Below the pieces are notes generated by a model that saw nothing but the letters and a program-made list of their open reading frames with translations, was not told the origin of the DNA and made no database searches. Below, piece after piece: positions 8,068 to 63,881 of a stretch of 64,000 nucleotides of DNA; position 1 is the stretch's first letter, and the number at the start of each line of letters is the position of its first letter. A program made the translations under genes and the position numbers. Source of the stretch: an uncultured bacterium (GTDB lineage Bacteria > Acidobacteriota > Aminicenantia > Aminicenantales > UBA4085); contig CALMMC010000124.1 of NCBI GenBank assembly GCA_937868205.1, positions 33,046 to 97,045 on the forward strand, given 5' to 3'.

Positions 8068-8080
8068 AAGAACTATCCTA

Positions 8081-8096
8081 TTAGTTGACTATACCA
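8081..8096. promoter_or_regulatory. Second copy of the TTAGTTGA-containing motif, overlapping a candidate extended -10 (TGgTATAGT on the minus strand) of the Rrf2 gene
   Basis: Exact 8-mer shared with 7554-7561. It lies 14-29 nt upstream of the Rrf2 TTG start in the divergent region shared with the sensor-kinase operon. Confidence 0.3.
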
Positions 8097-8145
8097 ATCG
8101 GCCATCTGATTTATCATTTCCCGGGCCTTCTGTCAAGTTCATTTA

Positions 8146-8154
8146 TGATAAAAT
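8146..8154 (+). promoter_or_regulatory. Candidate extended -10 promoter element TGaTAAAAT for the kinase operon
   Basis: TGnTAnAAT match 17 nt upstream of the kinase ATG. Confidence 0.25.
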
Positions 8155-8170
8155 AACTGCGGCGGAAAAG

Positions 8171-10120
8171 ATGCCTTTCCGGTTTGTCGATCTCCCTCTC
8201 AGGCGAAAAATGATCCTCGCCATTCTCGCCATCGTTCTCTTCGGAGGGATTGTTTTCGGCATCCTCGGCCTGCGACTCGAACACCAGACGATCATGTCCC
8301 TGGCGGAAAACCGGATCCACCACGATATGGACTCCGCCCGGACCATTTATTCCTTTTACTTGGACAATCTGCTGACGGCCGTGACCCTGACGGCCGAATC
8401 GGAGCTCTTGCGTCTCCCCCGCTCCGCCCAGCCGAACGCCGAACTGGATTTCCATCTGGCTCGGGCCGCGGAAGCGGGACGTTTTGATTTTCTATCGTTC
8501 GCGGCCGCCGACGGAAGACGGATCGCTCTCTCCGATCCGGCCGTTCCGGCCGGCGGATTCCGGGACCGGGATTCTTTTTTCTCCCGGGTCCTCGAGGGAA
8601 AGCGGCTCGCCGCGACGCGGCTTCTCCCCCTGGATTCCCTCCGCCGGGAAAGCACCCGGTTCGGAGAATCCGCGGCCGGGGACATCCTCGTCCTTGTCGC
8701 GGCGGCGCCCGTCCGCGGCCCGGAAGGAAGGATCATCGGCGTCCTGGAGGGCGGACGGCGGATCAACGGCGACAACGAGATCGTCGACCGGGTCAAAGCC
8801 GCGATTTTCGATCCCGAAAAACGCGGCGGCCGGGACACGGGCGTCGTCACGATCCACCAAGGCGACATCCGGGCATCGACAACCCTCAAAAACCCCCAGG
8901 GGAGCCGGTTGAACGGAACGCGGGCGGATCCCCGCTTCCGGCAGGAGGCGCTCGAACGAAGGAAAGCTTGGGCCGGGCGGGCCGTCATTCTCGGGGAACG
9001 GTACATCAGCGCTTCCGAGCCCCTGGCCGATTACGACGGGACCGTCGTCGGAATGCTGAGCATCGGTCTTTTAGAACGGCCGTTTCTCGCTCTCCGCAAC
9101 CGGGTGATCACCCAAAACGCCGCCTGGGCCGCGGCCACGGCGGCCGTTCTGCTGATCCTCCTTTCCCTCATGGCGACGCGTCTCGTCCGGCCGTTGGGAG
9201 ACTTGGCCGCGGCCGCGTCCCGGATCGCCCAAGGCGACCTGAACCTGAAAGTCCCGGTCGGCGGCCGCGACGAAATCGGAGAGCTCGGCGGGGCGTTCAA
9301 CCGAATGACCGCCGAGCTTCGCAAGGCCAAGGAAAATCTTCTCCAATGGACGTGGACTCTTGAAAGCCGGGTCGCCGACCGAACCCACGCCCTCCGCAAC
9401 ATCCAGGAATCCATGGCCCGATCGGAAAAAATGGCCTCCCTCGGGCAACTCGCCGCCGGCATCGCCCACGAAATCAACAATCCCCTGACGACCATCCTCA
9501 TCAACGCCCATCTTCTGCTGGAAAAAGCTCGGCCGGACGATCCGGCCGCGGCCGCTCTCCGCCTGATCGCCGAGGAAACCGAGCGCTGCGGCCGGATCGT
9601 CAAGGGGCTTCTCGAATACTCCCGGCGGACGCCGCCCGAAAAATCCGCCCTCGACGTCAACGCCGTCGTGGAACGCACCATCGGCCTGCTTTCCGGCCAG
9701 GCCTGGGCCCGCAACGTCCGTCTCTCCCATCATTTGGACCGGACGCTCCCTCCGCTCTTTCTCGACAGAGCGAAAATCCAACAGGTGTTCTGGAACCTGA
9801 TCCTCAACGCCTGCGAGGCGATGCCCTCGGGAGGAACGATCGATGTTTCCAGCCGCCGCTCGGCCGACGGCCGGTCGATCGAGGTCGTATTCGCCGATTC
9901 GGGGCCGGGAATCCCGGAGGAAAACCTCGACCGGATTTTCGACCCCTTTTTCACGACCAAATCCTCGGGAACGGGCTTGGGGCTGGCCGTCGCCGCCAGG
10001 CTCGTCGAGCAGCACGGCGGAACCATCTCCGCCCGAAACGGGGCTGGCCGCGGCGCGGTCTTTACGATACAATGGCCGCTGGCGGACACGGAAACCGGGG
10101 ACAGAGGAATTGGACCATGA
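8171..10120 (+). CDS. Sensor histidine kinase (N-terminal TM, periplasmic sensor, HAMP, HisKA, HATPase)
   Basis: H-box HEINNPLTTI, N-box, and G-boxes DSGPGIP / GTGLGLAV; coiled-coil HAMP-like segment with GDLNLKVPVGGRDEIGELGGAFNRM. Confidence 0.9.
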   Translation: MPFRFVDLPLRRKMILAILAIVLFGGIVFGILGLRLEHQTIMSLAENRIHHDMDSARTIYSFYLDNLLTAVTLTAESELLRLPRSAQPNAELDFHLARAAEAGRFDFLSFAAADGRRIALSDPAVPAGGFRDRDSFFSRVLEGKRLAATRLLPLDSLRRESTRFGESAAGDILVLVAAAPVRGPEGRIIGVLEGGRRINGDNEIVDRVKAAIFDPEKRGGRDTGVVTIHQGDIRASTTLKNPQGSRLNGTRADPRFRQEALERRKAWAGRAVILGERYISASEPLADYDGTVVGMLSIGLLERPFLALRNRVITQNAAWAAATAAVLLILLSLMATRLVRPLGDLAAAASRIAQGDLNLKVPVGGRDEIGELGGAFNRMTAELRKAKENLLQWTWTLESRVADRTHALRNIQESMARSEKMASLGQLAAGIAHEINNPLTTILINAHLLLEKARPDDPAAAALRLIAEETERCGRIVKGLLEYSRRTPPEKSALDVNAVVERTIGLLSGQAWARNVRLSHHLDRTLPPLFLDRAKIQQVFWNLILNACEAMPSGGTIDVSSRRSADGRSIEVVFADSGPGIPEENLDRIFDPFFTTKSSGTGLGLAVAARLVEQHGGTISARNGAGRGAVFTIQWPLADTETGDRGIGP

Positions 10121-10503
10121 CCGAGACAAAACGGAGAATCTTGATCATCGACGATGAACGCTCCGTTGTCCAAAGCATCGCCCTGGCCTTGGCCGGGGAA
10201 GGCGTCGAAATTGAGACCGTCCTTTCCGGAGAGGACGCGCTCATCCGGACGGCCGCCGTCCGCTACGATCTTATTATCTGCGATTTGATGATGCCCGGTC
10301 TGAGCGGCCTCGACTTGTTGAAGTCCCTCCGGACATACCGGCCCACCACCCCTGTTCTGATGATCACCGGCTATCCGACGATCAAAACGGCCCAGGAATC
10401 CTTGAAAATGGGCGCCTTCGCCTTCATCACCAAGCCGTTCACGCCGGCGGAAATCCGGAGCGCCGCGGCCCGGGCCCTCGCCCAAGCGGATTCGAAGGAA
10501 TGA
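10117..10503 (+). CDS. Single-domain response regulator (CheY-like receiver)
   Basis: ILIIDDE...DLIICDLMMPGLSGLDLL...ITKPF receiver motifs; ATG overlaps the kinase stop (ATGA). Confidence 0.85.
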   Translation: MTETKRRILIIDDERSVVQSIALALAGEGVEIETVLSGEDALIRTAAVRYDLIICDLMMPGLSGLDLLKSLRTYRPTTPVLMITGYPTIKTAQESLKMGAFAFITKPFTPAEIRSAAARALAQADSKE

Positions 10504-11408
10504 CCGGCCGTTTCCTTCGCGCCGGGGCTTGCCCCGTTTGCCGCGGCCTCGACATTCGTCCATGGAAAAAAGGGACGTTCGATTTCTCCGGCCTCCGATC
10601 CGACCAGATTAAAATCACGGACAGCGAATACGGGAAAACGTGGGACCTTCAAGCCTGCGGCGCCTGCGGCCACATCTTCGCCGATCCGTACCCGGCGCCG
10701 GATTTCCTTGCCTCCCTTTACGGGGAAGTGGAAGATCCGCTTTATGACCAGGAGGCCGAAGGACGGACGCGGAATTTCCTGCCCATCCTGAACCGGCTGG
10801 ATCTCTTCCGTCCCGGCCGCGGAGCCCTGTTCGACGTCGGCGCGGCCACGGGCATCCTGGGCGACGCCGCCCGCCGGCGCGGCTGGCGGGTCGACGGCGT
10901 GGAGCCGAGCGCCTGGGCCGTCCGGAAGGCCGCGGAAAAGTATGGCTTGATCCTCCGCCGGGGAGGATTCGAGGACATCGCCGCCGCCGGCGATTCCTTC
11001 CAGGCCGTGACCATGGTCGATTTCATCGAGCACACGCCCCGCCCGTCCGAGGCGGCCGCCATGGCCTTCTCCCTTCTGGCCCCGGGCGGCGTCCTGTGCC
11101 TCGTCACCCCTGACATTCACAGCCCGGCGGCCCGCCTGGCCGGCCGGCGCTGGTGGCACCTGCGGCCGGGCCACCTGGCTTATTTTTCCAAGAGAAGCCT
11201 CCGGGTTCTTCTTGAGGGAGCGGGATTCCGGATCGTCGAAATCCGCCGCTATGCCTGGACATTCAGCCTTCATTATCTCGTCTCCCGCTTCCGCTGGATG
11301 GATTCCTTCGCCCGAAGCCGGGCCTCTTCATTTCTCCGCAAGATCCCGATAAAATTGGCCCTCGGCGATTCGTTCGAGATATACGCCGTCAAGGATCCAT
11401 TTTCGTGA
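10500..11408 (+). CDS. Class I SAM-dependent methyltransferase with N-terminal C4 zinc ribbon
   Basis: CPVCRG...CGACGH Zn ribbon; LFDVGAATG (motif I) ... LAPGGVLCLVTP (post-II); ATGA overlap with the regulator stop. Confidence 0.75.
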   Translation: MTGRFLRAGACPVCRGLDIRPWKKGTFDFSGLRSDQIKITDSEYGKTWDLQACGACGHIFADPYPAPDFLASLYGEVEDPLYDQEAEGRTRNFLPILNRLDLFRPGRGALFDVGAATGILGDAARRRGWRVDGVEPSAWAVRKAAEKYGLILRRGGFEDIAAAGDSFQAVTMVDFIEHTPRPSEAAAMAFSLLAPGGVLCLVTPDIHSPAARLAGRRWWHLRPGHLAYFSKRSLRVLLEGAGFRIVEIRRYAWTFSLHYLVSRFRWMDSFARSRASSFLRKIPIKLALGDSFEIYAVKDPFS

Positions 11409-12313
11409 ACGCCTATCTGCGGGCCCTGCGCCTGGAGCGGTGGCCGAGAAGCTCGGCCATTTTCCTGGGCAGCGCCGTCTTCGTTTTCCTTCACCGGGAG
11501 GATGTCGCCGCGCTCTCTCCGGCGGAAACCATCTGGAGGCTGGCCGCGGCGTTCCTTCTGACTTGGGGCATCTCGACGGCCAATTACGTCCTCAACGAAA
11601 TCGTCGACCGCCCCTTCGACGTCCACCATCCGACCAAGCGTCTCCGGCCTCTTGTCAGCGGTGAAATTAAAGCCTTTCCCTTCGCTCTCATCGGCCTTCT
11701 TCTCGTCGCCGCCTGCGGCGGGGCGGCCGTCCTCTTGTTCGACCGGACATTCACCCTCGCCCTGCTGTCCCTGCTCGCCGCCGGGATTGTTTACAACGTC
11801 CCCCCCATCCGGACCAAGGACATCCCTTTCCTCGACTCCGTCTCCGAATCGGTCAATAATCCGATTCGTTTTCTCATCGGCTGGTCGGCCCTGGCTGTTT
11901 CCGGAAAGCTTCCTCCCCTCTCCGTCCTCGTCTGCTGGTGGGCGTTCGGCAATTTTCTCATGGTCGCCAAGCGGCTGTCCGAGTTCCGTTTCCTCAAGGA
12001 GAAAGCCGGAGAATACCGGATATCCCACCGGAAATACTCGCGGACGTCGCTGGTGATCGGCATGTCCGTCAGCGCCCTGATCTGTCTTCTGGCCTTTCTT
12101 TACTTCGGCTGGATCTTCAAGCTTCAATCCTTTTATGCCATCGCTCCGTTCCTCCTCGTTTTCTTCGGCTTGATTTTCCGGAAAACGCTCCGGGAGGCGG
12201 AGATGATGGAGGAGCCGGAAAAGCTTTTCATCCATCCGAAATACGCGCTCTATGCGCTCTTTCTTGTTCTTCTGTTCGTCCTCGCGTTCTTAAAGGACGC
12301 CATCGGACAATGA
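11405..12313 (+). CDS. UbiA-family integral-membrane prenyltransferase
   Basis: About 8 TM helices; aspartate-rich motif NEIVDRPFD (N/DxxxDxxxD) plus a second Asp-rich region; overlaps the neighbouring genes. Confidence 0.7.
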   Translation: MNAYLRALRLERWPRSSAIFLGSAVFVFLHREDVAALSPAETIWRLAAAFLLTWGISTANYVLNEIVDRPFDVHHPTKRLRPLVSGEIKAFPFALIGLLLVAACGGAAVLLFDRTFTLALLSLLAAGIVYNVPPIRTKDIPFLDSVSESVNNPIRFLIGWSALAVSGKLPPLSVLVCWWAFGNFLMVAKRLSEFRFLKEKAGEYRISHRKYSRTSLVIGMSVSALICLLAFLYFGWIFKLQSFYAIAPFLLVFFGLIFRKTLREAEMMEEPEKLFIHPKYALYALFLVLLFVLAFLKDAIGQ

Positions 12314-13465: not shown

Positions 13466-14350
13466 TCAAGCCCGCGGATGGCTCTTGCGGTAGACGGCGA
13501 GCAACTGGGGCAGGTCCAGATGGGTGTATTTCTGGGTCGTCCCCAGGCTTTCGTGGCCGAGCAGCTCCTGGATGACCCGAAGATCGGCCCCCCGGCCGAG
13601 GAGATGGGAAGCGAACGAATGCCGAAGGGAATGGGGGCTGATTTTTCTCCGGATGGCCGTTTTTCTGATATATTTGGCGACCAGCCGCTCCACCGAACGG
13701 GACGTGATCCGTCCCCCCCGGTAATTCAGGAACAAGGCCGCTTGGTCGAGAGGTCCCTTCAAAAAGCCGGGCCTTGTTTCAAAATAAGCCGCCAGGCTGG
13801 AGGCCGCCGTCCGCCCGAACGGAACGATGCGCTCCTTTTTCCCCTTGCCCCGGACGCGGAGGAGGCGCTCCTCCAAGCCGACGTCGGAGACGTCCAAGCC
13901 GGCCAGCTCGCCGACCCGGATGCCGGTGGCGTAAAACAACTCGAAAATGGCCCGGTCCCGCGGCCCCAGACGGTCGTTTCTATCCGGAAGATCCAGAAAC
14001 CGCTCGATCTCCCCCTCCGAAAGAAAACCGGGGACGGGACTGTCGAGTTTCGGCCGGGTCACGACCACGGCCGGATTATCATCGCAAATCCGTCGCTTGA
14101 GGCAATACTGGAAAAACGACCGGACGGCGGCCAGCTTGCGGGCGACGGACGTCTTGGAAAGGCGCCGGTCGTGAAGATCCGCCATCCAGCCGCGCAAAAT
14201 GATGTTATCGACCCGGGCCAGGCGGACTTTTCGGCGGTCAAGATAAGCGGCCATCTGGAGAAGATCGCGCCGGTAGGCGGCCACGGTATGGGCCGAGGCG
14301 TTTCTTTCATACCGGAGGTACTCGAGGAACTCATCGATGTTTTTGCGCAT
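13466..14350 (-). CDS. xerC: Tyrosine site-specific recombinase XerC/XerD family
   Basis: N-terminal SAM-like domain; catalytic R...HxxR...Y (HSLRHSFASHLL ... GHESLGTTQKYTHL). XerC versus XerD cannot be distinguished by eye. Confidence 0.8.
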   Translation of the reverse strand: MRKNIDEFLEYLRYERNASAHTVAAYRRDLLQMAAYLDRRKVRLARVDNIILRGWMADLHDRRLSKTSVARKLAAVRSFFQYCLKRRICDDNPAVVVTRPKLDSPVPGFLSEGEIERFLDLPDRNDRLGPRDRAIFELFYATGIRVGELAGLDVSDVGLEERLLRVRGKGKKERIVPFGRTAASSLAAYFETRPGFLKGPLDQAALFLNYRGGRITSRSVERLVAKYIRKTAIRRKISPHSLRHSFASHLLGRGADLRVIQELLGHESLGTTQKYTHLDLPQLLAVYRKSHPRA

Positions 14351-14515
14351 GCGTCCGGATCCGGCGCCGCCGGCCCTGTTTCATTTTAACGAAATCCGTC
14401 CGCATATCCAAAAAAAGGGCGGATCGATATTTCCGGTTTATTCTTCCCAGACTCCTCGGGCGTTCTCCCTCAAGGCGGAGAAGCTGCGCCACGGCCGCGA
14501 TTTTGGGAATTGATC

Positions 14516-16852
14516 TTAGACCCCGCCGGCTTCCGGCCCCGGTTTGTCCGGAGCACCCCCCCCGTCTTCCCTCGAGTCGCCGTCTTTCCCGGCCGGCTCG
14601 GGTTCTTCCCCCGCCGGACGAGGCGGGACGGCCGGAGGAGACGCCGGCTCGCGCCAGCCGCAGTTCTCGTCGACACAGTGCTTGTACGTCCCGTCCTTCT
14701 TGGTCGTTTTCCGGAGGACGAACGGCCGGCCGCATTTCGGACAGGATTCCGGAAGCGGCTCGTCCCAGGTGGCGAACCGGCACTTCGGGAAGGAGCTGCA
14801 GCCGTAAAAGAATTTCTCCCGTTTCGTCTTTCTTTTCAAAAGCGTCCCGCCGCACCCTTGGGGACAGGCGATCCCCGTATCGACCTTTTCCTTCCCCTTG
14901 ATGAACCGGCATTTCGGATAGTTCGAGCAGGCCACGAACATCCCGTAGCGGCCGACCCGCTGGACCAGGTTCGCCCCGCACGTCGGGCATTTTTCCTCGA
15001 GGGGAACGGGCTCGCTTTTTTTATAAAGATCATCCGAGTAATCGCATTCGGGATATCCCGAGCAGGACTTGAACCGTCCGAACTTGCCGCCCTTGTTGAC
15101 CAGCGGCTTCCCGCATTTCGGGCACTTTTCGTCCAGGGGGATTCCTGTCCCGGCGACGCTTTCGACTTTGCCCGCGGCCGCGAGATCATTTTGGAGCCGG
15201 CCGTAGAAATCCCGCATCGCCCCGACCCAGTCCAGCGTCCCCTCGCTCACTTCATCCAGCTCCCCTTCCATCCGGGCCGTGAATTTGTACTCCATCAGGT
15301 CGGGGAAATGCTTGACCAGGAAATCGGTGACGAACATGCCGAGATCGGTCGGAACGAACTTGTTCTCCTCCTTGACGACATACACGCGGTTCTGCAGGGT
15401 GACGATGATCGGGGCGTACGTCGAGGGCCGGCCGATTCCCTTGGCTTCAAGTTCCTTGACGAGCGTTCCCTCGGTATAACGGGCCGGAGGCTGGGTGAAG
15501 CTCTGTTTCGGCTCAAGCTCGGCCAGGGTCAGCGTTTCGTCTTTCTTGACCGGCGGGAGGGCATCTTCCTCGTCCTCCTCTTTTTTGGGATAAAGCTCCC
15601 ACCAGCCCTTAAACTTGATCACGCCGCCCTTAACCGTAAACAGGAACCGCTCGCCGGCGGCGATGGTCAGGGCCGTCTCTTCGAGAACCGCCGCGCTCAT
15701 CTGGGAGGCGAAGAACCGGTTCCAAATCAGCTGGTAGAGGCTGAATTCCTCTTTTTTCAAATAGGGCCGGACCGCCTCCGGCGTCAGTTCGGGCGAAGTC
15801 GGCCGGATGGCCTCGTGAGCGTCCTGGGCCTTGCCTTTGTTGGCGTGAACCCGCGGATGAGAGGGAACGTGAGCCGCCGAAAAGGACTGGACGATGGCCG
15901 CCCGGGCCCACGCCTGGGCCTCGGCCGAAATCCGGACTGAATCAGTGCGCATGTAGGTGATGAGGCCCATCGGCCCCCGTTCACCCAGCGGAAGCCCCTC
16001 GTAGAGCTTCTGGGCGACGGACATCGTCTTCTTGACGGGGAAGCGGAGAAGCCGGAAAGCTTCCTGCTGAAGAGTGCTGGTGATATAGGGCGGCGGCGGA
16101 TTCCTCTTCTTTTCGGTGACGGCGACGTCTCGGACGACATAGCGGGCGCCTTTCAGCGCATCGACGATCGCCTGAGCCGAGGCGCCGTCGGGGATTTTGG
16201 CTTTCTTTCCGTCGATTTTGGACAACGCCGCCTTGAACCGGGGGGGGAGCGAGGCCTCCAGGTAGGCGAAGATCGTCCAGAATTCCTCTTTTCGGAAAGC
16301 CCGGATCTCGCGCTCCCTCTCGACGACGAGGCGAAGGGCGATGCTCTGGACGCGCCCGGCGCTTAAGCCCCGGCCGATCTTTTTCCAAAGCAGCGGGCTG
16401 ATCTTGTAGCCGACAAGCCGGTCGAGAACGCGGCGGGCCTGCTGGGCTTCGAACATATGAACATTTAATTCGCCCATGTGCCGGACGGCGTCCTCCACCG
16501 CCTGCTTCGTGATTTCCTGGAGCCGGACGCGGAACACCGGCTTCTTCCCGTCATCGAAAATCGCTTTTAGATGCCAGCAGATCGCTTCTCCCTCGCGATC
16601 CGGATCGGCCGCCAGGATGATCGATGAGGCCGTCCGGGCCGCCGCCCGAAGCTCGCCGACGACCTTCTCGCGCTCGGGAATGATGATGTATTGGGGTTCG
16701 AAATCCTTGTCGACGTCCACGCCGAGCTTGCTTTTCGGAAGATCCCGGACGTGCCCCATCGAGGCCATCACCCGATAGCCCGAACCCAGGTATTTATTGA
16801 TCGTCTTGGCCTTGGCCGGCGACTCGACGATCAAGAGGGCCTTGTCCATCAC
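14516..16852 (-). CDS. topA: DNA topoisomerase I with C-terminal zinc ribbons
   Basis: Toprim LIVESPAKAKTI, active-site region, and multiple C4 Zn-ribbon repeats (CPKCG, CPTCG, CSNYPKC...). Confidence 0.95.
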   Translation of the reverse strand: MMDKALLIVESPAKAKTINKYLGSGYRVMASMGHVRDLPKSKLGVDVDKDFEPQYIIIPEREKVVGELRAAARTASSIILAADPDREGEAICWHLKAIFDDGKKPVFRVRLQEITKQAVEDAVRHMGELNVHMFEAQQARRVLDRLVGYKISPLLWKKIGRGLSAGRVQSIALRLVVEREREIRAFRKEEFWTIFAYLEASLPPRFKAALSKIDGKKAKIPDGASAQAIVDALKGARYVVRDVAVTEKKRNPPPPYITSTLQQEAFRLLRFPVKKTMSVAQKLYEGLPLGERGPMGLITYMRTDSVRISAEAQAWARAAIVQSFSAAHVPSHPRVHANKGKAQDAHEAIRPTSPELTPEAVRPYLKKEEFSLYQLIWNRFFASQMSAAVLEETALTIAAGERFLFTVKGGVIKFKGWWELYPKKEEDEEDALPPVKKDETLTLAELEPKQSFTQPPARYTEGTLVKELEAKGIGRPSTYAPIIVTLQNRVYVVKEENKFVPTDLGMFVTDFLVKHFPDLMEYKFTARMEGELDEVSEGTLDWVGAMRDFYGRLQNDLAAAGKVESVAGTGIPLDEKCPKCGKPLVNKGGKFGRFKSCSGYPECDYSDDLYKKSEPVPLEEKCPTCGANLVQRVGRYGMFVACSNYPKCRFIKGKEKVDTGIACPQGCGGTLLKRKTKREKFFYGCSSFPKCRFATWDEPLPESCPKCGRPFVLRKTTKKDGTYKHCVDENCGWREPASPPAVPPRPAGEEPEPAGKDGDSREDGGGAPDKPGPEAGGV

Positions 16853-36413: not shown

Positions 36414-38546
36414 GTGGATAATCCAAGCCATCGACGTCTTCTTCGCGGACTCGCGGTCATTTTATATTCCTTGCTGCTGGCTCTTTTCTATTGGAAGTAT
36501 GTGCCCCTTGTCGCCGCTTACCAGGCCGTTCTTATTCCCCTTCTCCTTTTCGTCGCCGTCGCCGCGGCGACCGACGTCCGAAAGGGCTTGCTGGGATTTC
36601 TTTTTCTATTTCCGCTGATCAACAATCTCCCGTATTTTTTCAAGCTCTACGATCCGCTTCCCATGGCCCCCTCGGCCTTGGTCCTGTTTCTCTTTTTCTT
36701 CCTGGGCCGGCTGATCCACGGGGTCTTCTTCCCTTTTCCGCCGGAAGAAAGCGGAAAAGGACCGAAGGAACCTCTCTTCACGCCGCTCCGCCTCTTTGCC
36801 GGCCTCGTCCTTTTCTCCGCCCTGATCACGTTTTGGCGCTACACGAATTTTTTCCCCCTCTGGCGGCCGCGGATTTATGAGCTTGTGACGAACGTCAAGG
36901 GCGTCAGCGCCGGCGGGGCGATCATGAGCGTCGTCTTCTACAGCCTGACGTACCTGACCGGCATCGTTTTTTTCACCCTTTGCGTCCGGGTTCTCCGGAC
37001 GGAGGGGTTCATTAAAAAAGCCGTCGCGGCGTTTGGGGTCGGATCATTTCTCTCGATCGGTTTCGGGTTTATTCAAAAATTTCATTCCCCCGCCCTCGGC
37101 AATCTTCCGGCCAGTCTCCGTCACGGCCTTCTCAACGCGACCTTCAAGGACGCCCTGTCCTTCGGGGCTTTTCTCTCAATGCTCATTCCCTTCTTGGCCG
37201 GACTCCTGCCCGCCGTCAAGGGAAGGACGAGGCTGACGGCGGCCGTCATGACGGCCGCGGCCGGCTATTTCTTGTTCCACGCCGGCTCCAAGAGCGCCCT
37301 CATCGCCGCCGCCGCCGCCCTTCTCTTCCTGGGAATCCTCATGCTTCCGGCGATTCTCGAGCGGCGCGGTCCGTTAGCCCGCCTGGTCATCCCTCTGGGG
37401 CTGGCGGCCGCCGTATTCGCCGGCGCCTCGATCTATCTCTTGATATCGGGAAATTTCCCCTCCGAGAACGGACAGCGCACGGCGACCATCGAACGCATGG
37501 AGGATTTCGCCTCAGCCCTCGAAATCCGCACCGCCGGCCACTGGAGGATCGCGGGCCAGATGATCCGGGATTATCCCCTAAGCGGCGTCGGGGTCGGGGC
37601 CTATATCATCGAAATGGCCAACACGGCGAAAACCCTCAAGATCTCGATCGGAGTTCCCGAATCGGCCGAAAACCTTCCTCTCCACGTCGGGTCCGAACTG
37701 GGGATTCCCGGCATGCTTCTATTCCTTTGGATCCTTTGGGAGATGGGAAGGCGGATTTTTCTCTCGTTCCGGGCGGCGCCTTCCGGGACGTTCCCCAGGG
37801 CCCTCATCGCCGCCTCGGCCGCCGGATTGTTCGCCTTCCTTGTGAATTCCCAGTCGCATTCCTACATCGGAAGCTATGAAATCCAGTACCTCTTCTGGTT
37901 TCTCGGCTCCCTGGCGTTCGCCGGGGACGTCCCTTCGCCCGCCGCCGCGGCAGGGCGGAAGCCGTCGAGCCGGCGCTTGGGACGCCTCTTCGGAACAATC
38001 CTCCTTTTTCTCGGCACGGCGGGGCTTCTTTGGAATTCAGCTCATTCGCTCTCGCTCAACGCCCGCACCGAGCGCTACCGGCTCCGGCAGGGATTCGGCC
38101 TCGGTCCCTATGAAAAGGACGCGGACGGACGGCGTTTCCGCTGGAGCGGACGATATGCGGGACTGACCGGCCGGGCCGGCGCTCCTCCGCTCAAGGCGTG
38201 GCTCCTCGCTTCTCATCCGGACATCCGCGTCCGGCCGGTCCGGCTGCGCCTCTTCGCCGCCGCCGACCTGGCCACGAAACCGGTCCTTCTCCAAGACCTC
38301 GTCCTTAAAGAAAACCTATGGAAAAGGATCGAGCTCCAGGCCCCCCCCGGCTTCCCGGAATCTTCCCTTTTTCTGTTCGAGGTGGATCGGACGTGGAATC
38401 CGCGTAAGGCGGGCGTATCGGACGATCCCCGGGACCTCGGCCTGGCGATCGGGATCATCCAGGCGGCCGGCCCGATCAAGCCGAAGGAAAAAACCGAGGC
38501 GGCCAAGCCCGCAAACAGTCCTCCGGAAAAGAAGGAAAACAGTTAG
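36414..38546 (+). CDS. Large Wzy_C/O-antigen-ligase superfamily membrane protein with about 200-aa C-terminal periplasmic domain (candidate polymerase or PglL-like O-oligosaccharyltransferase)
   Basis: About 12 TM helices, Wzy_C-like loop (FLFHAGSKSALIAAAAALLF); 710 aa is much larger than a typical WaaL; adjacent to a bacillosamine-like sugar pathway. Confidence 0.55.
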   Translation: MDNPSHRRLLRGLAVILYSLLLALFYWKYVPLVAAYQAVLIPLLLFVAVAAATDVRKGLLGFLFLFPLINNLPYFFKLYDPLPMAPSALVLFLFFFLGRLIHGVFFPFPPEESGKGPKEPLFTPLRLFAGLVLFSALITFWRYTNFFPLWRPRIYELVTNVKGVSAGGAIMSVVFYSLTYLTGIVFFTLCVRVLRTEGFIKKAVAAFGVGSFLSIGFGFIQKFHSPALGNLPASLRHGLLNATFKDALSFGAFLSMLIPFLAGLLPAVKGRTRLTAAVMTAAAGYFLFHAGSKSALIAAAAALLFLGILMLPAILERRGPLARLVIPLGLAAAVFAGASIYLLISGNFPSENGQRTATIERMEDFASALEIRTAGHWRIAGQMIRDYPLSGVGVGAYIIEMANTAKTLKISIGVPESAENLPLHVGSELGIPGMLLFLWILWEMGRRIFLSFRAAPSGTFPRALIAASAAGLFAFLVNSQSHSYIGSYEIQYLFWFLGSLAFAGDVPSPAAAAGRKPSSRRLGRLFGTILLFLGTAGLLWNSAHSLSLNARTERYRLRQGFGLGPYEKDADGRRFRWSGRYAGLTGRAGAPPLKAWLLASHPDIRVRPVRLRLFAAADLATKPVLLQDLVLKENLWKRIELQAPPGFPESSLFLFEVDRTWNPRKAGVSDDPRDLGLAIGIIQAAGPIKPKEKTEAAKPANSPPEKKENS

Positions 38547-52118: not shown

Positions 52119-52823
52119 TTATCTCGCGTATTCAAAATGAACGAAATCCGGCTCGTAATATTTTTGAACCGCGTTCTTCATTTCCCCGGTATACCGTTTT
52201 TCCTTCGCCGCCGGGCGGAACGACAGGCGAAAGACGATTCCGGGGTGTTTTTTGATGATTCTCCAGCCCCGAACAGCATGAGTTCCCGGGCTCAAACCGC
52301 TCGAATCGTTGAGATTTTGAAGCCGCGCGCCGCCGAGGTTCAACCGCCGGGCGACTTGGGCGAAATCCTCGTTGATCGTCTCCAGCTTCCCGACGTAATC
52401 AACGAGCCGAGTCCCCGATTCATCATACACATAGGACGACATGGGCTTGATGAAGTAATGGAGACTCGGATCGCCGAACAGACGAGGAAGCTCGTCTAGA
52501 ATGAACGTTTCAAACGAGACTAGACGGGCGTATCCCAGGTACTTGTAAAAAGAATAAACCCGGTCATAGGGATTCCGGACGAACGCGAATTTAAAGTAGG
52601 CGTCGAACGTTTCTTGGTTGACATATCCATATTCCACATATTCCCGGGCCGTCAGGTGGGACAGGATCCCGGGCCCCCGATCTCCCCGGTTGACGATCCC
52701 CAGAAGAAGCGATTCCCGGCGGGCGAAGTCCAGGCCGAGCGCATCGAGAAAAACCTGCTCAATGCTGATGCCCGCCACTTTCGGGATGTGAACAAAAATG
52801 CATTTGTATTCATGAGACAACAT
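52119..52823 (-). CDS. Sulfotransferase (Sulfotransfer_2 / carbohydrate sulfotransferase-like)
   Basis: N-terminal PAPS 5'-phosphate-binding region (IFVHIPKVAGIS) and FVRNPYDRVYS 3'-phosphate-binding motif. Confidence 0.7.
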   Translation of the reverse strand: MLSHEYKCIFVHIPKVAGISIEQVFLDALGLDFARRESLLLGIVNRGDRGPGILSHLTAREYVEYGYVNQETFDAYFKFAFVRNPYDRVYSFYKYLGYARLVSFETFILDELPRLFGDPSLHYFIKPMSSYVYDESGTRLVDYVGKLETINEDFAQVARRLNLGGARLQNLNDSSGLSPGTHAVRGWRIIKKHPGIVFRLSFRPAAKEKRYTGEMKNAVQKYYEPDFVHFEYAR

Positions 52824-52850
52824 CGAAACGCCGTAACCTCCGTCCCGGAG

Positions 52851-54413
52851 TCATGGGATCTCCGTAGTGTTTTCCGCCTTGAGCCGCTTTTTTATTCTCA
52901 GGATCTGCGCCGCTTTTTCTCCGACCACCCGGCCGTAATCCAGAAACTGCCGCCGCTCGGCCTTCGTCGCGATCAGGACGTAACATCCGGCGAAATAGAG
53001 AAGGACGCTGAAAACGGCGACGGCCGCCCGGCCGAGGAATTGATCGAACCCGGCCAAGCGGATGATCCCCCAGGCCGGCAGCAACACGGCCGCCGTCATC
53101 GCCGATGACTGGCCGAAGATCCGGATCCAGACGCCGCGCCAGCGGGCCTGGACGGCCTTTAATCCATACACGATATTGAGACACCCGCAGAGGAGGCTGC
53201 CCCCGCACAGGCCGATGGTGACGGAAAGATAGGGGTTCCGCGTCAGATGAAACAGGGCGAGGATCGCGGCAAACGGCACGAGGACAAGGGCGATCAAGTA
53301 GATGAGCACGACGGTCTTCAACCGGCCCAGTCCCTTGAGCATGTGATGGGCCGAGGACGTACTGAGCTGGAAGGAGACGCAAGCGAACAAAGCGAACGCA
53401 TAGGGCGCCAGAAACGCATATCGGGACCCGACCCAGATCGTCAGGATGTTCCTCGTCAAAAGGCCGGCCGCGATCACCCCGGCCAGGACGAACATCGTCG
53501 TATACCGCATGCTGCGAATGAGCAGTTCCTTGAGCATCGGCTGGTTTCCGACCGCCTCGTAGGCGCTCGTCAACGGCATGACGGTGATCGTCATCGGCCG
53601 GATGATGTCGGCCAGCACCGAGACCGGCATCAAGATGCTCGCCAGGTGCGAGACGAAGCTGGGAGAGACCATCCCGCCCATCAACCACCGGACGCCCGTC
53701 GAATTGGCGGCGAGGGAAAAATTCACCAGGACCGTCGCTCCGCCGAAGGCGGCGATCAGCCGGAAGCTCGTCCAGTTGAAAAAGCGCGGCCGGTTCTGCA
53801 GTCCGGGGACAAGGCGATAGGCGATCGGGACCTGGGACGTCCGCGAGAGGAATAAAAACACCGCCGTGATGACGACGACGCTCTCGAGGGACGGCTTGAC
53901 CAGTTGAAACCAGGCCACGATGGCCAGGAGGCTGCCGTATTTCGAGACCGTGTCCAGGACGGCGCCGACGTAATAACGCTGCCGGGATTGAATCACGGCC
54001 ACATACGGCGTCAAGGGAACGATGAAGAGAACGATGAGGGCGACCACGGTCAGGGCGGTTCTCATCGGGCTGGAGGGCGCGATGAATAATATCGCCGCCG
54101 CCAACAACCCGCCGCTTGTCACCACCGCCAGGAGAAGGGAATAAACAAAGCTCGAGGAAACGATTTTTTTGACCTCGTCCAGGCGTCCCTGGGCGAGAAA
54201 ACCCGCGCTGTACTTGACCACGCCCTGCTGCAGGGCGATTTCGAGCTGAACGACCGACATCAGCAAAGACCAGATCAGGGCGTAGAGGCCGTATCCTCCC
54301 TCTCCGATCGTCCGGATCAAGTAAGGCACCAGAATGACCTGGGGAACGATCAGGAAAGCTCGGGTGATCCACATGATCGCGGCGTTGGAAAGAACTAAAT
54401 GGGACTGTCGCAT
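52851..54413 (-). CDS. wzx: Oligosaccharide flippase Wzx (MOP superfamily polysaccharide biosynthesis protein)
   Basis: 520 aa, 12-14 TM helices, typical Wzx-like N-terminus; the overlapping alternative-frame ORF 52810..54372 is R/G/P-rich and rejected. Confidence 0.8.
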   Translation of the reverse strand: MRQSHLVLSNAAIMWITRAFLIVPQVILVPYLIRTIGEGGYGLYALIWSLLMSVVQLEIALQQGVVKYSAGFLAQGRLDEVKKIVSSSFVYSLLLAVVTSGGLLAAAILFIAPSSPMRTALTVVALIVLFIVPLTPYVAVIQSRQRYYVGAVLDTVSKYGSLLAIVAWFQLVKPSLESVVVITAVFLFLSRTSQVPIAYRLVPGLQNRPRFFNWTSFRLIAAFGGATVLVNFSLAANSTGVRWLMGGMVSPSFVSHLASILMPVSVLADIIRPMTITVMPLTSAYEAVGNQPMLKELLIRSMRYTTMFVLAGVIAAGLLTRNILTIWVGSRYAFLAPYAFALFACVSFQLSTSSAHHMLKGLGRLKTVVLIYLIALVLVPFAAILALFHLTRNPYLSVTIGLCGGSLLCGCLNIVYGLKAVQARWRGVWIRIFGQSSAMTAAVLLPAWGIIRLAGFDQFLGRAAVAVFSVLLYFAGCYVLIATKAERRQFLDYGRVVGEKAAQILRIKKRLKAENTTEIP

Positions 54414-60112: not shown

Positions 60113-60155
60113 TATTTTCCTTCCTGGCAATTGCATAGGACCGCCCAAGCCTTAT

Positions 60156-60164
60156 ATTGTAGCA
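60156..60164 (-). promoter_or_regulatory. Candidate extended -10 element TGcTACAAT (minus strand) upstream of lptD
   Basis: Reverse complement of attgtagca; 44 nt upstream of the lptD ATG. Confidence 0.25.
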
Positions 60165-60214
60165 CAACGGAAGCGGCTTCGATTCCGCCGCGACGGGGGA
60201 TGCCTGGCCCTGAA

Positions 60215-61180
60215 TCAGAGGAGCGGGTGGCGTTCGCCCCGGCGGGGATCGACGGCGGCCTGCCGGATGTCGTGGACGATCTCGACCGCCCGGCGGTTTT
60301 CCTCGAGGCCGAAGCCGCGGCCGGCGAGGATCTCCTCGTAAACGCGGGAATGAAGGTCCGCGCAGCCCTCGGTGAAGTCCGCGGGCTCCCCGTCGACCGT
60401 GATCCGGCGGAACGCCCGCGGGCTCCGCGCACGGCCGGCGGCGGGAACGTCCCCGGCCCGGAGCGAGAGATACCACCGGATCCGGGCCCGGCGGAGCTCC
60501 AGGAAGCCGGCCGCCCTGTCCGGCTCCTTCAAGTGAACGATATTGCCGCCGGCGACCGCCTCCCCGAAGATCCACGTCAGGACATCGAAGAAATGGATGC
60601 CGATGTTGGTCGCGACTCCCCCTGATTTCGCCTCATCCCCTTTCCAGGAATAGAAATACCAGCGGCCGCGGGCCGTGACATTGGTCAGCTCGACGTCGTA
60701 AACCCGCCCGGCCGGGCCGGTCTCGACCCGCGACTTCAGCGCCCGAAGGGCCGGGTGGAGCCGCATTTGGAGGACGGTATACACCTTCCGGCCGTACTCG
60801 GCCTCGATGGCTTTCAAGGCGTCGAGGTTCCAAGGATTCAAGACGACGGGCTTTTCGCAGATCGCCGAGGCGCCCAGGCGGAGAGCAAACCGGATGTGGG
60901 CGTCATGGAGGTAATTGGGCGTGGCGATGCTCAGGCAATCGATCCCTCCGGCCGGATCCGCCCGCCGGAGTTTTTCCAGGAAACGATCGAAACGCTCGAA
61001 CTCGGTGAAAAAAGACGCCCCGGGAAAATAGGAATCGAGCACGCCGACGGAATCGGATTTGTCCATCGCCGCGACGAGGACGTTGCCGGTGTTCTTGATC
61101 GCCTTCAAGTGCCGGGGGGCGATATAGCCGGCGGCCCCGATCAGGGCGAATCGCTTGAGCGAGGGGATGAATTCCTGCAT
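60215..61180 (-). CDS. Gfo/Idh/MocA-family NAD(P)-dependent oxidoreductase (possibly sugar-nucleotide 3-dehydrogenase, WbpB-like)
   Basis: FALIGAAGYIAPRHL Rossmann N-terminus and EKP motif (ICEKPVVLN) typical of the family. Confidence 0.7.
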   Translation of the reverse strand: MQEFIPSLKRFALIGAAGYIAPRHLKAIKNTGNVLVAAMDKSDSVGVLDSYFPGASFFTEFERFDRFLEKLRRADPAGGIDCLSIATPNYLHDAHIRFALRLGASAICEKPVVLNPWNLDALKAIEAEYGRKVYTVLQMRLHPALRALKSRVETGPAGRVYDVELTNVTARGRWYFYSWKGDEAKSGGVATNIGIHFFDVLTWIFGEAVAGGNIVHLKEPDRAAGFLELRRARIRWYLSLRAGDVPAAGRARSPRAFRRITVDGEPADFTEGCADLHSRVYEEILAGRGFGLEENRRAVEIVHDIRQAAVDPRRGERHPLL

Positions 61181-61277
61181 CGACGGCTTCTCCTTCCGTC
61201 TCCGGGCTCCGGAGAAAATCATATCGAAAAAGAAACCGGAGCTCAACTCGAACCCTGGACAGGCAGGCGCCCGTGGA

Positions 61278-63881
61278 TTATTTTTTCCGGTTGGCCCGGC
61301 AAAAATCCATCATCGCCTGGAGGGCGTTTTCCACCGCTTCCGGCGAGCCGTCCTGGCGGGCGAACGCGTCGACGAAGGCCAGGAGGTCGGGGGCGGGCGG
61401 ACGCCGGCCGTAGCCGTGAAAGACGTTGACGATCGCCGCGTCCAGGCCGAGCTCCATGGCCCGGGCCAGGTAGGCGCGGGTGACGCCCGTCCGGCGGCCG
61501 GGCAAGTCGCGGACGGCGTTGGTCACGCCCAGGGAAAAATGAACCCCCCTGAACTCGGGATCGGCCTTGAGCCTCCGGATCGTCTCGAACGCCCGGAACG
61601 TATAGCCCGGTTTGGCCGCCTCCATCGGGACGTCGATCGAGAGGGGGAAGACGGTCGAATCCAGAAAGATATCGCCCGGGGCGAATCCGTGCGATCCGGT
61701 CGCGGCCCGGACGATCCGCCGGGCCAGCGCTTGAAGCTCCTCAACGCCGTAGGCGCCGTCGAGACCGGCCGTTTTCTCGTCTACGAGGAGACCGATGAAC
61801 TTGAAGGGGAAGCGGGCGCGCAGCGGGAGCAGCCGCTCCATCGTGTAGGTTTTGACGGAGTTGACGAGCGGGGCGGCCGACGGCCGGCCGCCTTCCCGCC
61901 CGCCCTCGTACCAGGCGGCCAAGCCCGCCTCCAGCATTTCCGTCGAGCCGCTGTCGATGCAGACCGGGACGCCCAAGGAGTGTCCGCGGATCAGGCGGAC
62001 GAAAAAGCGCAGGATCTCCTTCCGGAATTCCGGATCATCCTCGCTGAGGGCATCGACGTTGACGTCGATATAGGCCGCCCCCTGCTTGGCCTGCCGCCGG
62101 ATGAGCGAAACGAGATACCCGAGGGCGGCGGAGCCGGACGCCCGGACGGCCCCGGGCGGGGCGCCGATGAGGCCCTCCTTGATCACCTCCTGGACGGCCG
62201 CCGCCGTCCGGGGGATGCTGGCGTGGAGCAGCTCGGCGATTTGGATCAGCGGAAAGCCCCGGGCGTGGTCGCGGTCAAACACGTAATTCAGAACGCCGGA
62301 GGTGTGCTCGAGGGCGGCGATCCGCGGGGGAAGCGCGGTTTCCGCCAAGCCGTCGAGCTTTCCAGCCGCGGCGGCCGCTTGGAAGATCGGCTCGGCCACG
62401 CAGACGCGCGTCTCGTCGTTTCCGCAGCGGCCTTCCGGCGTGGCGTCGCCGCAGGGAGGATTGGGCAGCCCCTTGGCGCATTCCCCGAGCGTGCAATAGC
62501 CGAAGTTTTCCGGCAGGAAGCAGTCTCCGCAGTCCTCGCAAGCGAAAAGAACGGCCTTGGCCGCCGCTTCCGCTCCGTGAAACCACCGGTAAAGGCTCCC
62601 CTCCCCTTTTTCGAGTCCGAAGGCCCGGGCGGTCCCGGCGACCGCCGGACAGAGGCGCTTTCCCTTCGTCAAGAAGTTCCGGTGAAGAAAATCGAACCGC
62701 CGCTGGCGGAACGTCCGGGGCCGCGGGGACGGCCGGAACGGCGGCCTTGGGGCGGAACCTCCCTCCGTCTCCGGTCCGTAGAGGTAGAACAATCCCGGCC
62801 CGGAAGCGGGCGGGGGCGGCGGATAATCCAAGATGATCCGGCGTTGGCGCCAGCCCGGACCGATCTCGCCGGCCCGAACGGCGATCCGGACCAGGGCGTC
62901 GAAATCGGGCAAACCGCCGAGATCGACGCCGTCGGCTCCGAGATCGCGGTACATCGCGACCTGGCAGGCGGCCCGCTCGAGATGAGCCTCCGCTTTCTCC
63001 CGCCGGACGGCGGCCAGGAGCTCGTCGGAAACGAAGCAGCCGGGCATCCGGCCCTCGTTCATCAGCCGGGCAGCCGGGTTGGCGTTGGAGAGATAATAGA
63101 CATTGCCGAGGACGGGCGCGTCGAGGCGGGCTTGGCGGAAATACCGAAAGAGCTCCTCGGACTTGCGGGAGTCCCAGCCCATCTGCAGAAGAAAGGCTTG
63201 AGCGCCGGCCTGGAGTTTTTTGGCCGCTTTGAAATATTGCTGAAGGAGCGAGGCCTCGGTGTACTTGAACGGAGAAACCGCGGCCAGGGCGAAAAATTGA
63301 GGGACCGAGGAAAATCTGGAGGCGAAGGAGGCCGAACCTGGGCGCGGGCCGGCCAGCATCTCCCCGATTCTCGAGAAGCCGCCGGGGGCGGGCGGATGCT
63401 CCGGGGACGGAACCGTCCGCTTCGCCGGAGGGGAGACCGGAGCTCGCTGAAACGCGTCGAAATTCAGCTCGGAGACGAGCTCGAGCAGGCCGATGGAGTC
63501 CAGCTCGAAGACCCGCTTTCCGGACGCCGGCTTGTCGCCGGTGATCGCCAGGACCGTTGTCAGGCCCATGGCCCGGAAGCCCATCAGGGCGGACCGGAGG
63601 GCCTCGGCGTTCTGTTCCTTTCCGGTGACATGGGGAACGACGTCGAGATCATCCCACAGTCCCCGGCCCGACGGCCCCTTGGCCGCGATGATCGAAAAGA
63701 TGTCGGCCGGATCAAGCATGGGAATGCCCCGCGGATTCTGCGGAAGAGCGACGCCCGCCAAACGGAAGCCGGAGGGGATTTCAGATTTTCGGCCGGCGTA
63801 ATCCCGAAGAAAACATTCGATCGGCCGGACGTCGTCCCCCTGGGCGGGGACGAGCTCGGCCAGCAGTAAAAACGGTTTCAT
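61278..63881 (-). CDS. Fusion protein: methylenetetrahydrofolate reductase (MetF) + MTHFR_C/MetV-like Cys-rich domain + pterin-binding (DHPS/MeTr-like) domain
   Basis: MetF-like region (VLAITGDKP ~ ILALRGDPP; AGAQAFLLQ); Cys-rich CEDCGDC...YCTLGEC...PCGD...RCGND as in the MTHFR C-terminal domain; then YIDVNVDAL...PVCIDSGSTEMLEAGL...GLDAAIVN resembling the methyl-THF-binding TIM barrel of MetH/AcsE. Confidence 0.65.
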   Translation of the reverse strand: MKPFLLLAELVPAQGDDVRPIECFLRDYAGRKSEIPSGFRLAGVALPQNPRGIPMLDPADIFSIIAAKGPSGRGLWDDLDVVPHVTGKEQNAEALRSALMGFRAMGLTTVLAITGDKPASGKRVFELDSIGLLELVSELNFDAFQRAPVSPPAKRTVPSPEHPPAPGGFSRIGEMLAGPRPGSASFASRFSSVPQFFALAAVSPFKYTEASLLQQYFKAAKKLQAGAQAFLLQMGWDSRKSEELFRYFRQARLDAPVLGNVYYLSNANPAARLMNEGRMPGCFVSDELLAAVRREKAEAHLERAACQVAMYRDLGADGVDLGGLPDFDALVRIAVRAGEIGPGWRQRRIILDYPPPPPASGPGLFYLYGPETEGGSAPRPPFRPSPRPRTFRQRRFDFLHRNFLTKGKRLCPAVAGTARAFGLEKGEGSLYRWFHGAEAAAKAVLFACEDCGDCFLPENFGYCTLGECAKGLPNPPCGDATPEGRCGNDETRVCVAEPIFQAAAAAGKLDGLAETALPPRIAALEHTSGVLNYVFDRDHARGFPLIQIAELLHASIPRTAAAVQEVIKEGLIGAPPGAVRASGSAALGYLVSLIRRQAKQGAAYIDVNVDALSEDDPEFRKEILRFFVRLIRGHSLGVPVCIDSGSTEMLEAGLAAWYEGGREGGRPSAAPLVNSVKTYTMERLLPLRARFPFKFIGLLVDEKTAGLDGAYGVEELQALARRIVRAATGSHGFAPGDIFLDSTVFPLSIDVPMEAAKPGYTFRAFETIRRLKADPEFRGVHFSLGVTNAVRDLPGRRTGVTRAYLARAMELGLDAAIVNVFHGYGRRPPAPDLLAFVDAFARQDGSPEAVENALQAMMDFCRANRKK

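Follow-up and report, generated by a model that had tools for sequence, protein, structure and literature searches.

A conserved single-chain fusion of MetF-like, MetV-like and pterin-binding domains in Aminicenantes and other anaerobic bacteria

Introduction

Methylenetetrahydrofolate reductase (MTHFR) of the acetogen type is made of MetF and MetV, which are separate subunits (PMC8760232, PMC5736913). MetVF purified from Clostridium ljungdahlii contained flavin mononucleotide and an amount of iron-sulfur fitting two predicted [4Fe-4S] clusters in MetV; the enzyme takes electrons from reduced ferredoxin and not from NAD(P)H, and MetV is described as containing iron-sulfur (Fe-S) and zinc (PMC8760232). 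Here we describe a gene that encodes a MetF-like barrel, a MetV-like Cys-rich domain and a pterin-binding barrel in one polypeptide. It lies at 61278 to 63881 on the minus strand of a 64,000-nucleotide stretch of DNA from an uncultured Aminicenantales bacterium (contig CALMMC010000124.1, positions 33,046 to 97,045), which we call the window and in whose coordinates positions are given.

Other described systems concern the step that follows the reduction. Genetic evidence connects DUF1638 proteins and RamA-like activators with a split methionine synthase, in which the pterin-binding subunit is a protein of its own (PMC5764234). A split system of this kind is defined by a corrinoid protein, a homocysteine methyltransferase, a RamA-like activator and DUF1638 encoded separately in one genome, and by methionine auxotrophy when it is deleted (PMC5764234, PMC12478193). 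In Ruegeria the gene for such a subunit (mtgD) adjoins a metF paralog; the roseobacter MtgD is reported to be bidirectional, and the adjacent MetF2 is proposed to oxidize methyl-tetrahydrofolate (methyl-THF) (PMC12478193). Full-text searches found no description of the three-domain architecture, and nothing on methionine synthesis in the lineages that carry it. The nearest mention is a figure legend in PMC5736913 in which Pterin_bind, MTHFR_C and MTHFR appear for an hdr-metVF gene cluster of marine Chloroflexi.

An earlier prediction from the sequence (hereafter the original prediction) had named the three domains, stated that their combination was not recognized as described, and suggested that the fusion couples methylene-THF reduction to methyl transfer; the literature searches agree with it on the second point. 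On balance we favor the reading that the fusion is a bifunctional one-carbon (C1) enzyme, a MetFV-type reductase joined to a methyl-THF:corrinoid methyltransferase, which would work anabolically and feed methionine synthesis through a split B12 system.

Results

Integrity of the fusion gene

The open reading frame (ORF) list contains an uninterrupted ORF of 867 codons plus stop on the minus strand, running from an ATG at 63881 to a stop at 61278–61280. That this ORF (61278..63881) is complete is supported by the list, by three Pfam domains, by collinear full-length homologs, and by an AlphaFold model. An antisense ORF of 904 residues (61155–63869, plus strand) overlaps it; its product is of low complexity, rich in Arg, Gly and Pro, and unsupported, and it was rejected as a shadow ORF of a high-GC coding sequence, since homology backs the minus-strand frame alone.

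MetF and MetV are separate subunits in acetogens, and the original prediction had cautioned that the ORF might be an assembly chimera with a coverage break around 62.0–62.4 kb. The fusion could then be an artifact of assembly or gene calling in which separate metF, metV and methyltransferase genes were merged. However, the reading frame is intact, GC content is 0.64–0.70 throughout the gene with no discontinuity at 62.0–62.4 kb, the protein is identical to an 867-residue fusion recorded on an ENA contig, and further homologs with 47–73% identity extend collinearly over 97–100% of the query. Because full-length homologs come from many independent assemblies, including closed chromosomes, because relatives are encoded in 317 species-level genomes, and because the whole chain is modeled with confidence, the chimera was ruled out, and we regard the chance of any such artifact as negligible.

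The AlphaFold2 model, proposed as a check with the original prediction, was built with an alignment of 66 homologs that are 50–75% identical to the query (alignment A1) as input. A confident single chain was obtained, with a mean predicted local distance difference test (pLDDT) value of 86.7 and a predicted template modeling (pTM) score of 0.88; weak segments were limited to residues 156–186 and 372–379. The high pTM of the model suggests that the domains are held in a fixed arrangement relative to each other. Invariant columns were read from alignment A1, in which the catalytic or ligand residues of all three domains are invariant over the 66 homologs.

The three domains

Pfam supports the three domain assignments made in the original prediction, and NCBIfam and a fold search support the two barrels. 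The N-terminal domain (residues 1–335; 62877..63881, minus strand) is a divergent MetF/MTHFR-type (beta/alpha)8 barrel, as indicated by Pfam, NCBIfam, a PDB profile, hhalign, Foldseek and invariant columns. Pfam MTHFR (PF02219) scored 39.2 bits against a gathering cut-off of 24, with just residues 79–125 aligned, and NCBIfam models widened the match to residues 78–319. The MetF equivalog model TIGR00676 gave 30.7 bits against a cut-off of 293.7. Judged by these matches, the barrel is a member of the MTHFR superfamily and not an equivalog of the NAD(P)H-dependent MetF.

Residues E9, H84, D116 (in a TGD motif) and Q233 are invariant in the 66 sequences and align with Glu28, His88, Asp120 and Gln183 of Escherichia coli MetF, whose catalytic roles we take to be those given in the E. 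coli MetF literature. The family profile matched MetF in the PDB with E=6.5e-9 (hmmsearch), and hhalign aligned the barrel with E. coli MetF at a probability of 96.3%; residues 61–269 of the E. coli sequence used in that alignment match the PDB sequence. In a Foldseek search of the PDB, the barrel matched MTHFR structures from Thermus, E. coli and Haemophilus with template modeling (TM) scores to target of 0.72–0.78.

The MetV-like domain (residues 433–530; 62292..62585, minus strand) was identified by Pfam and by its invariant Cys residues. MTHFR_C/DUF5981 (PF12225) matched residues 433–515 with 52.3 bits against a cut-off of 23. Eight Cys residues are invariant in alignment A1, namely C448-x2-C451-x2-C454, C463, C468, C477, C486 and C494; by analogy with the centers reported for MetV, they would be ligands of Fe-S, and possibly also Zn, centers. 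No solved structure in the PDB matched this domain, even by profile at E values up to 10. The module lies here C-terminal to the MetF barrel in one ORF, not in a separate subunit encoded beside metF.

The C-terminal domain (residues 545–867; 61281..62249, minus strand) is a pterin-binding TIM barrel of the MeTr or MetH folate-domain type followed by C-terminal helices, an assignment that draws on Pfam, NCBIfam, PDB alignments, Foldseek and invariant columns. Three models of the MeTr/AcsE family were considered (PF00809, PRK07535 and NF040758). Pterin_bind (PF00809) matched residues 591–819 with 34.4 bits against a cut-off of 25.5. The best NCBIfam match, PRK07535 (methyl-THF:corrinoid methyltransferase), covered residues 594–821 with 82.9 bits against a cut-off of 259 and outranked the MetH model for this part of the protein; CODH_ACS_meth scored 35.5 bits against a cut-off of 370. 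MeTr types were also the best sequence matches of the domain, the family profile matching PDB 2yci with E=5.6e-19. Foldseek returned MetH folate domains, MeTr and an O-demethylase methyltransferase from the PDB with TM scores to target of 0.74–0.80, the MetH folate domains and MeTr structures giving 0.76–0.80. The original prediction depended on a pterin-binding fold at the C-terminus, and both the Pfam match and the Foldseek barrel match place one there.

In alignments with PDB 2yci, 3k13, 4ccz and 8g3h, residues D643, N674, D741, N788 and R802 fall on the DS, NS, D-P, GxSN and Arg motifs of MeTr and MetH folate domains. The first four are invariant in alignment A1 and R802 is near-invariant. 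The Asn of the GxSN motif is the position mutated in PDB 2ogy (Asn199Ala MeTr), which is itself among the structural matches. Two further positions lie outside the known MeTr motifs: C861, in a C-terminal helix (motif FCRANRK), is invariant in the family, and position 801 is nearly invariantly Cys in the family and Thr in the query.

Two segments join or interrupt the domains. Within the MTHFR barrel, a Pro/Ser-rich insertion (residues 150–195; 63297..63434, minus strand) is predicted to be disordered, with pLDDT below 50 at residues 156–186. It falls in a gap opposite E. coli MetF in the hhalign alignment, is confined to the closest Aminicenantes relatives (867–943 residues), and is absent from homologs of about 830 residues. 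Between the reductase barrel and the Cys-rich domain is a helical linker (residues 336–432; 62586..62876, minus strand), delimited by secondary structure, pLDDT and invariant columns, which holds the invariant H400 and a short, low-confidence Pro-rich loop at residues 372–379.

Distribution

A word-indexed search of 5.8 billion proteins gave 1079 matches. The best 120 of these cover 97–100% of the query at 47–100% identity, and the same three domains are precomputed for nearly every one of them; in a few family members Pterin_bind stays under the precomputed Pfam threshold. When one genome per species was scanned, a relative was encoded in 317 species-level genomes. The best 80 of these belong to Aminicenantes (Acidobacteriota), anaerobic Phycisphaerae, Pontiella (Kiritimatiellota) and Lentisphaerales (Lentisphaerota). 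The Phycisphaerae carriers are Sedimentisphaerales and Anaerohalosphaeraceae and include a cultured isolate (locus L085). Some metagenome-assembled genomes among the carriers have implausible labels such as "Eubacteriales" or "Pirellulales", which we take as submitter labels. The host lineages are anaerobic, saccharolytic fermenters and are not known acetogens. Collinear full-length homologs are therefore widespread, and the architecture, which had been called unusual before databases were searched for it, is not rare. Family proteins are named [quoted passage not shown] at NCBI.

Permuted and stand-alone relatives

When the C-terminal domain by itself served as query in an exhaustive phmmer search of 1.84 billion representative proteins, 31 matches had E values below 1e-30, among them full-length fusions. 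Complete stand-alone pterin-domain proteins of about 304–324 residues were also found among the 31. One of these (P0121; 320 residues, 54% identical) is encoded by its own gene directly after carB on a 123-kb contig (L089 10001–10963; L090); any MetF-MetV half in that genome would lie at another site. Proteins containing only MetV and pterin domains were present as well and may be fragments. In two matches the pterin domain comes first: P0171 has a pterin-like region followed by MTHFR, and P0151, of 849 residues, has the order Pterin_bind, MTHFR, MetV-like. The genomic contexts of the variants P0171 and P0133 gave nothing informative.

BLASTP aligned residues 545–822 of the query with residues 3–266 of P0151 (35% identity, E=8e-38) and residues 82–528 with residues 390–822 (27% identity, E=1e-32), with all eight Cys residues kept. 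The P0151 gene is part of an operon (L087 408–6785; L088) that encodes a B12-binding corrinoid protein, a DUF1638 protein, a RACo-type activator, the fusion, and a URO-D-family protein. A metagenome scan for the permuted form found one further full-length locus (L093), on a 226-kb metagenome contig, in which a homolog 64% identical to P0151 lies in nearly the same gene arrangement (1830–11802). This operon encodes an MtgC/MtbC/MtaC-like corrinoid protein, methyltransferases of the MtaA/CmuA family, and an AcsV/RACo activator; no DUF1638 homolog was detected in L093. A corrinoid protein and an activator thus stand beside the permuted homolog in both independent loci (L087/L088 and L093). The operon in L093 also adjoins a molybdopterin dehydrogenase gene (13509–16512). 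The operons of the permuted fusion appear to be uncharacterized methyl-substrate:THF systems with a built-in methyl-THF oxidoreductase.

The occurrence of two domain orders and of stand-alone forms, together with the operon linkage, argues for joint action of the three modules and for a corrinoid protein as the partner of the pterin barrel. The domain content and the permuted relatives are in line with the proposal that the fusion couples methylene-THF reduction to methyl transfer. Of the methyl acceptors offered in the original prediction, a corrinoid protein is the likely one, since the operons of the permuted three-domain relatives also encode a corrinoid protein, a RACo/AcsV activator, DUF1638 and MtaA/CmuA-family methyltransferases.

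These relatives also bear on the possibility that the fusion is a plain MetFV-type methylene-THF reductase, in which the pterin barrel would be structural, folate-sensing or product-binding and would have no methyltransferase activity. The modest Pterin_bind score, with a few members below threshold, would fit such a protein, as would the lack of a linked corrinoid partner; moreover, non-catalytic regulatory domains are reported on MTHFRs of other lineages (PMC13001107). However, the pterin-binding and N5-contact motifs (DS, NS, D-P and GxSN) are invariant across homologs of 45–75% identity, close stand-alone versions of the domain exist as genes of their own, and the homologous domain of the permuted fusion is found in corrinoid operons. 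We therefore consider a non-catalytic barrel distinctly improbable.

Genomic context of the query-type gene

The genomic context was examined by all-against-all clustering of the ORFs that flank the gene in 80 loci, and counts are given over the 77 loci of the query type. In the window, a gene for a GFO/IDH/MocA oxidoreductase begins 31 bp downstream of the fusion gene and is followed by lptD and a UDP-glucose dehydrogenase gene. Adjacency to the oxidoreductase is kept in only 2 of the 77 loci, the two closest relatives, and the oxidoreductase was accordingly rejected as a functional or electron-donor partner. The genes next to more distant family members, among them guaA, prs and smpB, are unrelated and of the housekeeping type, and the neighbors vary by lineage.

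The most recurrent neighbor is a ThiD2-ThiE gene, found in 19 of the 77 loci, all of the Phycisphaerae type; nothing is commoner. This ThiD2/thiamine monophosphate synthase fusion gene lies about 0.5–7 kb upstream of the gene studied here (e.g., L034 6366–7427), and its recurrence is probably lineage synteny. A thiamine pyrophosphate (TPP) riboswitch (62.9 bits; L043 6762–6882, minus strand) is found upstream of the fusion gene in L043. A gene for formate-THF ligase (PF01268, E=3e-230) is adjacent and co-directional in five loci, L027, L056 (3779–5545), L064, L075 and L079, which are labeled Lentisphaerales, Pontiella, Pirellulales or unclassified. The query-type gene behaves as a stand-alone housekeeping gene whose sole recurrent functional link is to THF-dependent C1 metabolism.

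The original prediction had framed the fusion in terms of the acetogen (Wood-Ljungdahl) pathway and had pointed past the window edge as the place to look for corrinoid proteins, MetH fragments or CODH/ACS. The divergent genes found there encode instead a hexapeptide acyltransferase, a UDP-GlcNAc 2-epimerase and ATP synthase components. Genes for CODH/ACS, the corrinoid Fe-S protein, or hdr, mvhD or rnfC2 were found neither at 30–64 kb of the window nor among the recurrent neighbors in the 77 loci. With no corrinoid or CODH/ACS-type partner in these flanks, the Wood-Ljungdahl framing finds no support for the query-type gene.

The position of the gene beside the oxidoreductase gene and lptD, which had been singled out as odd, loses its interest in the light of the 2 of 77 loci, and of the part of the window beyond, which is a surface-polysaccharide locus. 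We rejected lptD and the polysaccharide genes as meaningful context because they belong to a neighboring envelope locus. This locus, of the surface-polysaccharide or O-antigen type, occupies window positions 30219–55613, mostly on the minus strand. It encodes a Wzz chain-length determinant, a Wzy polymerase, an O-antigen ligase-like protein (36414–38546, plus strand), and several GT1, GT2 and GT4 glycosyltransferases, together with a sulfotransferase (52119–52823), a methyltransferase, a DegT aminotransferase, Polysacc_synt_2 dehydratases, a UDP-GlcNAc 2-epimerase, an RmlA-like nucleotidyltransferase, and multiple enzymes of the GDP-mannose-dehydratase family. A 520-residue ORF at 52810–54372 had no Pfam match. 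The locus of a 73%-identical relative (L002 13951–16442) has an insertion that separates the GFO/IDH/MocA gene from lptD and encodes an NTP_transf_5 nucleotidyltransferase, a protein of the AbiEii family and, by a weak match, an antitoxin of the PhdYeFM type; the window, where the corresponding site is at 60148–60215, lacks it.

Discussion

In the function that we favor, electrons would enter through the Fe-S centers of the MetV-like domain, the donor, by analogy with acetogen MetVF, probably being reduced ferredoxin and not NAD(P)H. A flavin in the MetF barrel would reduce 5,10-methylene-THF to 5-methyl-THF, and the C-terminal barrel would bind this product and pass its methyl group to the Co(I) of a separately encoded corrinoid protein, perhaps with physical channeling between the two sites. 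The net flow would run from methylene-THF through methyl-THF and methyl-corrinoid to methionine, the last step falling to a split B12-dependent methionine synthase whose genes lie at another place in the genome. The anabolic direction is favored because the gene stands alone among biosynthetic genes, because its sole recurrent C1 neighbor is formate-THF ligase, and because no substrate methyltransferases are linked to it.

Several observations weigh against this proposal. When the flanks of the 77 loci were searched with the corrinoid, DUF1638, RACo and URO-D proteins of the permuted operon, no gene for a corrinoid protein, activator, DUF1638 or MtaA-like protein was found within about 8 kb in any of them, and no S-adenosylmethionine (SAM) or cobalamin riboswitch was found upstream of the gene in the eight loci searched. 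All NCBIfam equivalog cut-offs were missed, so that function cannot be transferred by equivalence. For the cofactor content and the electron donor we rely on extrapolation from acetogen MetFV, to which sequence similarity is low. A complete MetH, MetE or canonical MetF in the carrier genomes would weaken the link to an anabolic split synthase. Finally, the operons around the permuted relatives resemble systems for the demethylation of substrates, in which the chemistry would proceed oxidatively and thus the other way round.

This last point leads to an alternative in which the chemistry is the same and the direction is catabolic. Corrinoid methyltransferase systems with genes at other sites would remove methyl groups from methylated substrates; the C-terminal domain would transfer them from methyl-corrinoid to THF, and the MetF and MetV domains would oxidize methyl-THF to methylene-THF and release the electrons by way of the Fe-S centers. 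The placement of the permuted homologs in operons typical of substrate:corrinoid:THF methyltransferase systems is consistent with this, as are the reported ability of MtgD to work both ways, the proposed role of MetF2 as a methyl-THF oxidizer (PMC12478193), and the presence of PDB 4o0q, an O-demethylase methyltransferase component, among the structural matches. However, such systems are usually clustered, and no gene for a substrate methyltransferase, a corrinoid protein or an activator was found close to the fusion gene in the 77 query-type loci. The neighbors are housekeeping biosynthetic genes, and the linked formate-THF ligase fits either direction and does not point to a methyl donor. We regard a catabolic role for the query-type fusion as less likely than the anabolic one, but as a serious rival to it.

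An extension of the anabolic proposal is that the family forms the reductase-plus-folate half of an unrecognized, ferredoxin-driven split B12-dependent methionine synthase, in which the MetV Fe-S centers might also reactivate Co(II) to Co(I); we offer it as a tentative idea. Aminicenantes, anaerobic Phycisphaerae, Kiritimatiellota and Lentisphaerota would all employ such a synthase, with one polypeptide taking methylene-THF to methyl-corrinoid. Lying between the two barrels, the Fe-S centers might supply the low-potential electron and so replace a dedicated activation domain. Independent fusions in two domain orders would then single out MTHFR and methyl-THF:corrinoid methyltransferase as partners whose functional pairing is obligate in anaerobes.

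If the bifunctional enzyme works as proposed, large and mostly uncultured anaerobic lineages would make methyl-THF with an iron-sulfur-dependent reductase instead of an NAD(P)H-dependent MetF, and would hand the methyl group on within the same polypeptide. In sediments and digesters, these carrier lineages are the dominant degraders of polysaccharides. The enzyme would close what is likely a gap in the annotation of methionine and SAM synthesis in their genomes, and the range of MetFV-type reductases would extend past acetogenesis. The protein would also offer, in naturally fused form, a system in which to study how corrinoid methylation is coupled to the reduction of methylene-THF, a matter of relevance to the question of which electron donor MetFV enzymes use physiologically. 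The permuted relatives in their operons offer another, independent way into the subject through demethylation systems. Since a generic annotation exists, the sequence as such was already known; the novelty lies in the interpretation of its function and in the permuted relatives embedded in operons. Each of the component chemistries is known, and the fusion is instructive as a new architecture without introducing a new principle.

Among described systems, the type II MetFV of acetogens such as C. ljungdahlii (PMC8760232, PMC8515935) resembles the fusion in having a MetF-type barrel and a PF12225 Cys-rich module. The fusion keeps the MetF catalytic residues and the eight Cys residues, and the path through flavin and Fe-S centers with a non-pyridine-nucleotide donor is probably shared. 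It differs in that MetF and then MetV are in one polypeptide with a third domain attached, in its low similarity to canonical MetF, and in its location outside a Wood-Ljungdahl cluster.

MeTr/AcsE and the O-demethylase methyltransferase II (PDB 2yci, 1f6y/2e7f, 4o0q) have the same TIM-barrel fold and the same pterin-binding and N5-contact motifs as the C-terminal domain. Unlike these proteins, the domain of the fusion does not stand alone, scores far under the NCBIfam cut-offs, and has an extra helical C-terminal extension of 45 residues that carries the invariant Cys861; in addition, no corrinoid Fe-S protein or CODH/ACS-type partner lies near the fusion gene.

The folate domain of MetH and the pterin-binding subunit of split synthases (PGA1_c16040 or MtgD) are likewise methyl-THF-binding barrels (PMC5764234, PMC12478193). 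As with the split-synthase subunit, the corrinoid domain or protein on which the barrel of the fusion has to act is encoded at another site, and mtgD of Ruegeria with its adjacent metF paralog is the unfused equivalent of the fusion (PMC12478193). The DUF1638 and RamA-like activators of the split synthase also accompany the permuted fusion. MetH-type sequences are, however, further from the fusion (33–40% identity, E about 1e-11 to 1e-8) than MeTr types are, and the MetH model TIGR02082 scored 52.9 against a cut-off of 1010.85, with a match confined to the folate module. The split synthases differ in that the reductase partner in the fusion is of the Fe-S-dependent MetFV type and is covalently joined; a role in methionine synthesis here would be by extension from them.

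The YitJ-type homocysteine S-methyltransferase/MTHFR (PRK08645) is also an MTHFR barrel fused to a methionine-synthase module, and its model matches the fusion through its MTHFR half (64.6 against a cut-off of 453). The module fused in YitJ is the homocysteine-binding PF02574, which is absent from our fusion, and YitJ has no MetV domain. Pfam found neither the homocysteine domain (PF02574) nor B12-binding domains (PF02607, PF02310) in the fusion protein, and membership in the MetH and YitJ types was ruled out by this domain content. The permuted Pterin-MTHFR-MetV fusions have the same three homologous modules in another order and are embedded in corrinoid methyltransferase operons, whereas the query-type gene stands alone. 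Because the equivalog thresholds are missed and the MetH and YitJ domains are absent, the fusion is not filed in the MetF, AcsE/MeTr or MetH equivalog families; it belongs to the MetF, MeTr and MetH superfamilies, combined in a new way.

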